DNA of 64,000 nucleotides. Origin: Bdellovibrionales bacterium (lineage in GTDB: Bacteria; Bdellovibrionota; Bdellovibrionia; Bdellovibrionales; JAUICD01). Location of the stretch: positions 1,920,001-1,984,000 of the forward strand of contig OZ241865.1 of assembly GCA_965203275.1 (NCBI GenBank), given 5' to 3'. Of the stretch, positions 25,820 through 26,254 are shown piece by piece; positions within the stretch are counted from its first letter, which is position 1, and each line of letters starts with the position of its first letter. The translations under genes and the position numbers were made by a program. The notes below the pieces were generated by a model. That model searched no databases and was not told where the DNA came from. It worked only from the letters and a program-made list of their open reading frames with translations.

Positions 25820-26254
25820 TTTCACTCAAAATGAGTTGTTTCACTAAAAGTAAACCAACCTCTGGTTGCTTTTGGGCGATGACCACGACGACTGTCGTCG
25901 TCGATAAAATGGTCATCACCTCAAAAGTCCGTTTACTTTTAGTAAGGAGGATCCCTTCATTTTTTAACACAATGTTAAGGAAACAAGATATGTTTCTAAA
26001 ATGTTTTTAGGGAGCATGCGAGTTGCGATAAAGGAACTTTTTCCCTAACATCATGTAAAGAGACGAGAGGATTCTTCCTACTAAAAATAAACGGATTTTT
26101 GAGGCAATCAGCCTTTGATCGACGGCGAGAGCCGTCGGGCTGATTGCCCAAAAACAGCCAGAGGCTGGTTTATTTTTAGTGAAAAAGATAAGAAGGCGAA
26201 TAGCCTTCGGCTGGCAACCTAAAAGTGACCAGAGGTCAGTTTACTTTTAGTGAA
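25820..26254. repeat. Modular palindromic repeat cluster (two divergently oriented A modules plus fragments)
   Basis: A modules at 25843-25943 (minus) and 26080-26180 (plus); half module about 26190-26254. Confidence 0.9.

Follow-up and report, generated by a model that had tools for sequence, protein, structure and literature searches.

A branched, covarying intergenic repeat of about 150 nt in a Bdellovibrionales genome

The element and its setting in the window

The 64,000-nt stretch of DNA analysed here (the window) belongs to a Bdellovibrionales genome that is 90% complete (G000), for which a sister genome of the same genus (G001) is available. Between a helicase and a Fic gene lie about 47 tandem copies of an 11–12-nt unit (9827–10346), and four tandem paralogs of 125–136 aa with 33-nt internal repeats, members of a coiled-coil family of about 30, occupy 18547–20500. 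A long protein built of many helix-turn-helix repeats is encoded at 29911–31434; similar proteins occur at four other loci (L188, L192, L200 and L202), and several of them are flanked by the repeat described below. A defence-like cluster (38579–51053) includes methylases, nucleotidyltransferase pairs, a type I S subunit, DUF4145 and an OLD-family ATPase/TOPRIM beside UvrD, the last two of which we take to be Gabija-like.

The repeat unit is about 150 nt long and consists of a variable purine-rich linker, a conserved leader, a branched core of 98–104 nt and a GA(N)ACA tail. A genome profile of the copies places the leader, of about 45 nt, upstream of the core; it comprises a TTTC-CYTAACAT motif, an imperfect palindrome and a small hairpin. 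Conservation of the tail fades across eight bases (G100 A95 A89 A79 C48 A75 A63 A60 in 584 distinct flanks). Folded as DNA, the focal core has a z-score of -12.1, and none of 200 shuffled sequences was equally stable.

The initial annotation, made from the sequence alone, described a 101-nt element in eight complete copies. Their positions, strands and quoted P1, P3, P5 and loop sequences all proved accurate, as did the core lengths (six of 101 nt, one of 98 and one of 104), and each copy folds into the three-way architecture. The 101 nt are a real core of the larger unit, leader and tail included. The eight copies are likewise real, and a ninth complete copy, carrying an extra insert, had been overlooked (37787–37979, minus strand). 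Eight partial pieces in the window also match the genome profile at E < 0.01. The P1 helix of the copy at 35646 carries a C-T mismatch. Rfam and related genomes were searched as well: no Rfam family matched the window at the gathering threshold, and the best scores in E-value mode (11–20 bits) were far below it.

Table 1. Positions of the focal copy, its parts and other copies in the window
Feature	Position	Strand	Remarks
Leader of focal copy	26030..26079	+	Purine-rich linker, TTTC-CYTAACAT motif (26040-26051), imperfect TTAACA-N3-TGTWAA palindrome, GAT-centred small hairpin; conservation profile
Focal branched core	26080..26180	+	Fold and shuffle test
P1 5' arm	26080..26092	+	Partner 26168-26180
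P2 5' arm, conserved bulged A (26102), P3 5' arm	26096..26113	+	Partners 26138-26154
P4 hairpin with GC-GAGA-GC cap	26120..26137	+	GCGNNAGC mini-hairpin type; fold; PMC13037366, accessible part
P5 hairpin with invariant AGA loop	26155..26167	+	Junction hot spot; terminator-like on both strands
3' tail (GAAAAAGA), right junction	26181..26188	+	
5'-truncated piece of another copy, stacked behind focal copy	26189..26255	+	
Complete copy, head-to-head with focal copy	25837..25993	-	
Complete copy and repeated 3' end, within atpH-atpA gap	22661..22844	-	
Two leader pieces, 3'-truncated outer piece, complete copy with 98-nt core (35595-35748), 5'-truncated piece	35385..35790	+	
Ninth complete copy with extra hairpin insert, and 3' piece	37744..37979	-	
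5'-truncated pieces and stacked 3' ends	37985..38118	+	
Complete copy	51249..51403	+	
Tandem array: two complete copies, one 3'-truncated copy, one leader	62213..62691	+	
Complete copy, then several 5'-truncated pieces	62906..63195	+	

The orthologous atpH-atpA gap holds a 3'-end remnant in G001; in three further genomes (G002–G004) the gap is short and free of the element. Heptamer arrays of the GGGATCY/GGCAACC type are also present in the window (22845-23177 on the minus strand, 35320-35470 and 62140-62212). Together with two or more further repeat modules, these arrays have the leader in common with the element and lie on its 5' side.

Abundance, distribution and placement

A profile search of G000 at E < 0.01 returned 1,393 non-overlapping matches in 539 clusters, and the reversed-genome control returned none. 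The matches cover 165,931 bases, which is 6.5% of the genome and 27% of its non-coding DNA, and 691 copies are full length under a strict cut. Only one of the 1,393 lies within an ORF according to a simple ORF caller; no copy occurs in a 16S or 23S rRNA gene, and one fragment lies in the spacer. In read-set contigs (Logan; four runs from three studies) the element bins reach 10–200 times the depth of unique DNA, so that the repeat is not an assembly artefact. The contigs of these four runs yielded no clean empty site.

Of 121 genomes of the order, a covariance model detects the element in three (G000, G001 and G004), and a 3' pattern matches 2 of 301 genomes of the class in a sample without G001. 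The copies in G004 sit on three short contigs (C1, C4 and C11). Contig C1 encodes a second recG that is 74% identical to that of the window, as against 54% for the recG on a main contig, and these contigs were therefore probably mis-binned from the genus of the window. Judged from these sequence comparisons, the element is probably restricted to that genus. Neither viral nor metagenome contigs matched the element pattern. Among the matches listed for genome contigs, the leader pattern has none, and those of the 3' pattern, at least 18 loci (L128–L145), all come from one Bdellovibrionales MAG.

Between co-directional gene pairs the element is found 221 times in sense and 185 times in antisense, that is, with no orientation bias, and its orientation has no link to the estimated replication strand (agreement 0.49–0.51), although GC skew is largely erased in G000. 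Where outermost right ends face a stop codon, 86 of 330 fall between -20 and +19 nt from it, a closeness for which short native gaps may account. The element itself supplies the stop codon of 30 ORFs. Among 38 tRNA rows from aragorn, four have a right end within about 15 nt of the CCA, all antisense, and at a tRNA-Asp gene of G001 the element abuts the CCA end, again antisense. The P5 hairpin is terminator-like on both strands (13 sites versus 1.9 expected). Such features would fit an RNA or regulatory structure selected for the host, for example an mRNA 3' protector, a bidirectional terminator or a ribozyme. We regard this as very improbable, given the similar numbers of sense and antisense copies, the lack of an Rfam match and an occurrence in 3 of 121 genomes of which the third is apparently mis-binned. 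Moreover, copies interrupt and truncate genes and one another, and one copy lies in sense inside the atp operon.

Covariation and the nature of the folded strand

Across 711 cores (438 distinct), each helix occurs as a few types. Of the 663 copies with the nine commonest types, 574 have P1 arms of one type, separated by 75 nt. Coupling between these arms (0.55) exceeds that of P1 with the intervening P3 (0.37) and P5 (0.44; range for the two helices 0.35–0.44), and is lower than that of P1 with the adjacent P2 (0.68). Fully paired helices occur in 101 combinations of types. In an alignment of 44 sequences from three assemblies, 31 of 42 core pairs have changed on both sides; such changes occupy 333 cells; shuffles give 96 and slid partners 38 or fewer, a control that ignores relatedness. 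Covariation is strong in two species. The palindrome of the leader has no both-side change in the same alignment, and one of its pairs is broken in 21 of 44 sequences; the leader is thus kept as sequence. Pairing of leader and tail as an extension of P1 likewise has no covariation.

Cores present in several copies are better folded than singletons: 88 of 98 multi-copy cores are free of non-wobble mismatches, compared with 192 of 316 singletons (p = 1.4e-8), a link that is partly expected because any point mutation creates a singleton. Nevertheless, stems could have been re-paired by template switching in quasi-palindromes and copies multiplied by homologous recombination, slippage and gene conversion, with no selection of the fold for spread. 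Stem types that differ by blocks of changes with few intermediates, long local tandem arrays in G001 and the frequency of mismatched-arm recombinants among singletons would all agree with such an origin. Against it, the bulged A, the one-sided bulge of 5–6 nt, the 3-nt junction, the AGA loop and the one-strand G..A loops persist unperfected in two species, insertions occupy new, non-homologous sites, and 90 of 99 multi-copy cores are at dispersed loci. As a full account it is improbable, while template switching remains a live contributor to the compensation.

Read on the top strand, the P4 loop is of the G..A form in 632 of 659 copies (354 GNRA, 217 GNYA and 61 of other lengths). Together with the both-side changes, this supports a strand-specific fold under selection. 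The initial annotation had proposed a strand-specific functional RNA or ssDNA structure rather than a plain terminator. Its strand-specific fold holds, and the structure is more than a terminator, although P5 resembles one; a host-functional RNA finds no support, the element being an intergenic repeat of about 1,400 pieces that nests, is confined to a genus and has no sense/antisense bias. Most stem mismatches had also been read as G-T wobbles, which is right for the eight window copies and weak genome-wide. The 414 distinct cores contain 13,803 Watson-Crick cells; mismatches comprise 235 G-T, 237 A-C (84 of these at a single terminal position of P3) and 305 of other kinds, and a clear G-T excess is restricted to P3 positions 2–3 (64 versus 13).

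Wobble is indeed rare, with 17 G-T pairs across 98 multi-copy cores; in typical RNAs it accounts for roughly a tenth of pairs. GNYA makes up 217 of the 571 G..A tetraloops (38%), GNRA being the largest loop class, and a GCGN(N)AGC cap closes P4 in 547 of 684 copies. As DNA, GCGNNAGC forms a mini-hairpin of exceptional stability that SSB binds poorly, according to the accessible part of one report; it is far weaker in RNA form and occurs at phage G4-type origins (PMC13037366); PMC12216960 contains nothing on GNNA loops. In G001, 17 of 25 P4 loops are GNRA and 4 are GNYA, and 11 are closed by T-A, which weakens the argument for DNA; the surplus of G-T over A-C at P3 positions 2–3 also points away from it. 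Motifs of ssDNA and RNA are hard to distinguish computationally, as the portion available of PMC5737381 states. On balance the evidence leans towards DNA rather than RNA as the folded strand, short of proof.

Insertion, neighbouring genes and candidate modes of spread

On insertion a copy takes the place of a few target bases; no duplication of fixed length accompanies it, and the junctions have short homology. No signal of target duplication was found in 58 isolated copies. Among 642 leader-to-tail runs, 21 rows (19 of them distinct) have a paralogous empty site, and several of the empty sites are located in other repeats. In the 19 distinct pairs the median target gap is 9 nt (range -10 to 49). 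Seventeen pairs are free of overlap; the other two, with overlaps of 2 and 10 nt, are readable as duplications. Linkers measure 4–26 nt on the left in 17 of the 19, and the right tail 0–12 nt in 16. For the 16 rows whose linkers are short, the empty site agrees with GAAACAAA at 3.9 of 8 positions versus 2.3 in the local background (p = 5e-5), in a test that is partly circular, counts three row pairs that are the same event and drops 3 of 19 rows for long linkers.

Copies also insert into one another. Truncated pieces, lacking the 3' end on the left and the 5' end on the right, enclose 143 of 676 copies, and the outer P1 arms of nested copies match in 36 of 87 cases, compared with 12.1 (maximum 26) by permutation, a count in which amplified composites do not stand as independent cases. 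At right junctions the most frequent join is that of GAAA to CAGAGG at the P5 loop (118 of 715), and the right junction lies 5' of CA in 264 of 584. Full copies are arranged in tandem 198 times, head-to-head 75 times and tail-to-tail 12 times (691 full copies). One array in G001 (C1:558529-562126) has fifteen leader matches with a period of 256–257 nt, and other arrays have a period of 228–236 nt.

Genes of paralog families adjoin the element more often (180 of 353) than other genes do (379 of 1,459). Rpn nuclease genes in G000 have the element on both sides in 27 of 52 cases versus a background of 5.5%. Four-helix-bundle genes (TIGR02436/PF05635) lie in heptamer arrays, and each of 11 cases in G000 is followed, within 300 nt, by an element, against a background of 21%. 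In G001 an element lies within about 700 nt of 15 of 20 such loci, at several of them inside the gene; none was found at 15 loci of G004 or at five from other families. We read both gene groups as favoured targets or passengers. According to the available text of its description, RpnA generates 3'-OH ends and has no sequence specificity; its authors propose that template switching and assembly through microhomology take part (PMC5350276), which makes a supporting role of Rpn possible. As the sole mobiliser it was rejected: G003 has 29 Rpn matches and lacks the element. About 50 Rpn-family matches were found in G000, many of them fragmentary, and the genome is almost devoid of GC skew in 100-kb bins; these two observations suggest heavy rearrangement.

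Searches for an enzyme yielded no candidate. In the 90%-complete G000 there is no match to Y1_Tnp or RVT_1, with working controls, nor to IS110, and none to Y2_Tnp (PF04986), for which the positive control was also silent, as was that of Rep_1. The right end is sharp with a variable tail; elements of the IS91/Helitron type have a Y2 transposase and a precise ori end. Rep_trans, RecT and Ku are absent from all five family genomes searched. G001 has one IS200-like gene, whose flanks hold no element motif by eye, and three reverse transcriptases (RTs), two of them inside group II introns. GIY-YIG has one match per genome, in frames of 612–653 aa, and DUF559 one in G000. About 60 ORFs are flanked by elements on both sides, and 20 of these were inspected and lack HUH, RT and DDE catalytic domains. 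Two tyrosine recombinases, one XerD-like and one of 187 aa, were judged by eye; their loci contain no element, and no integron integrase was seen among the recombinases so judged in G000. The ends of two multi-copy transposase families do not match those of the element by eye, the likeness of its own ends being weak. The leader was also compared with dif/Xer, promoter and hammerhead consensus motifs; these readings were rejected because by eye the spacing does not fit, and promoter-like sites number 10 versus 13 expected.

The element may be a bacterial counterpart of SINEs, in which a read-through RNA would be trimmed a few bases past P1 and reverse-transcribed from a target 3'-OH to which the tail anneals. 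A four-helix-bundle protein, which we take to be linked to Avd, could assist. The sharp 3' ends, the stacked 5'-truncated pieces, the graded tail of 4–8 nt, the dominance of GNRA loops in G001 and their lead in G000, the proximity to four-helix-bundle genes in both genomes and the RTs of G001 are consistent with this route. Yet RVT_1 has no match in G000, wobble pairs are nearly absent, GNYA loops are frequent, and 3'-truncated pieces with true nesting explain many of the stacked ends. G004 contributes 24 four-helix-bundle matches, with no element at the 15 loci noted above. We consider the SINE-like route distinctly doubtful.

A parallel is offered by REP sequences, with their REPIN and BIME assemblies and the RAYT (TnpA-REP) transposase. 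In the accessible parts of three reports (PMC3333891, PMC3116915 and PMC6006769) these are high-copy, extragenic, species-restricted folded repeats that form mosaics and tandem or inverted arrays, with compensatory changes, an unpaired stem base and no fixed target duplication. The element has the extragenic placement, the high copy number and the imperfect palindromic fold of the REP class. By those accounts, REPs are hairpins of 21–65 nt and make up at most 1% of the E. coli genome, whereas the element is 150 nt long with a three-way junction and makes up 6.5% of G000. Unlike REPs, it has a separate, sequence-conserved leader and replaces target bases on insertion. It also lacks the guide tetranucleotide GTAG/GGAG (or CnGA), the foot of P1 being variable (CCTT/CCCT/TCCT on top, TTTC at the bottom), and a RAYT/Y1 gene flanked by repeats was not found in the 90%-complete G000. 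Without guide and RAYT, it is not classed as a REP member. The initial annotation held that a match to a known REP or MITE family would speak against its proposal; the comparisons yielded none.

A REP-like repeat could still have been moved by an HUH enzyme of Y1/RAYT type that has been lost, left unassembled or become too divergent, with the junctions varied by loose cleavage and later recombination. The extragenic mosaic arrays, with head-to-head, tail-to-tail and tandem arrangements, fit this history, the bulged A and the invariant AGA loop are reminiscent of recognition marks, and the frequent right junction 5' of CA may be set beside the many C^T sites at which TnpA-REP cuts while building mosaics, as given in the available part of PMC3333891. 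The empty Y1_Tnp and Rep_trans searches, the bare flanks of the IS200-like gene of G001 and the untagged P1 foot count against such an enzyme, and target loss with variable linkers is unlike Y1 insertion. We judge this history unlikely.

That the element is a selfish interspersed repeat of some kind is highly probable, and it looks like a new variety of one. Our preferred reading, plausible though tentative, is a non-autonomous selfish ssDNA repeat whose fold would join both ends for microhomology capture by host repair. The top strand would be exposed or released as ssDNA, and a putative protein may read the leader as sequence. The core would then fold, P1 holding both ends together and the GCGNNAGC-type cap resisting SSB and nucleases. 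A target with a break or gap could pair with the short A-rich 3' tail and the 5' linker over 2–7 nt of homology, after which the insert would be fixed by polymerase, repair or template switching of the host, some target bases being lost. Copies that keep the fold would spread more, so that stems can be swapped while the architecture is kept. More speculatively, Rpn nucleases might supply the breaks. Neither an intermediate nor an enzyme that starts copying was seen, in a genome that is 90% complete, which counts against this ssDNA model, as do the lack of RecT and Ku in the five family genomes searched and that of any link to the estimated replication strand.

A related, unlikely reading dispenses with a dedicated enzyme altogether. 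A branched ssDNA would be read through its fold alone by host replication and repair proteins and captured by microhomology at breaks, its modular helices evolving under selection for the spread of the element, and its ubiquitous homology would help to shuffle paralogs of Rpn, four-helix-bundle, ankyrin and pilin genes.

How high-copy structured repeats spread in genomes without a matching transposase is an open question. What is new here is a genus-restricted, covarying selfish repeat with an unusual insertion signature, akin to known structured repeats, for which the searches run found no enzyme. A literature search of titles and abstract openings returned no description of it. With about 700 full copies, recombining helices, natural empty and filled sites and a sister species, selection on the fold is directly testable. 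Given its share of the non-coding DNA, the ORFs to which it lends stop codons and its adjacency to paralogous genes, the element may shape genome plasticity.

Other structured repeats share some of these properties. According to the accessible text of PMC3184786, bcr1 of the Bacillus cereus group is also about 155 nt long, with a branched fold kept by compensatory changes and with non-conserved positions, and it has 5-bp direct repeats, which the element lacks. MITEs, in the same source, have terminal inverted repeats and target duplications, neither of which was found in the element; between its two ends there is a weak likeness, TTTC-MCT against TTTC-CYT. The DUF1874 motif and the attC sites of integrons resemble it in conserving structure over sequence, probably as ssDNA, and in an extrahelical base; conserved ssDNA structures beyond a hairpin are rare, as far as the available part of PMC5737381 goes. 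Many P1 types end in AAC/GTT, as attC does. The attC pattern RYYYAAC...GTTRRRY is nevertheless not that of the element: the P1 types GTGGTC, ATGAGC, ATAAAT and ATGCAT lack AAC/GTT, and 290 of 711 cores lack AAC. Unlike attC, moreover, it forms no regular gene-cassette array and inserts imprecisely. The GCGNNAGC mini-hairpins of the phage G4/alpha3 origin, as the part of PMC13037366 at hand describes them, have the same cap as P4; this likeness rests on the cap sequence, which is less often GC-closed in G001.

An RT beside the element in G001 (L011) was rejected as a mobiliser, since it sits in a tRNA-Asp island and has no counterpart in G000. It is 590 aa long with an extra N-terminal region, the island carries a partial tRNA duplication, and we infer that the enzyme is retron-like. 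Four-helix-bundle genes are bordered by heptamers of the type seen in the window, which have a direct orientation there. Elsewhere in the order, in other families, these genes occur as head-to-head inverted pairs (L081, L082, L084, L086, L184 and L185), and five of those six loci centre on a small hairpin or branched fold.
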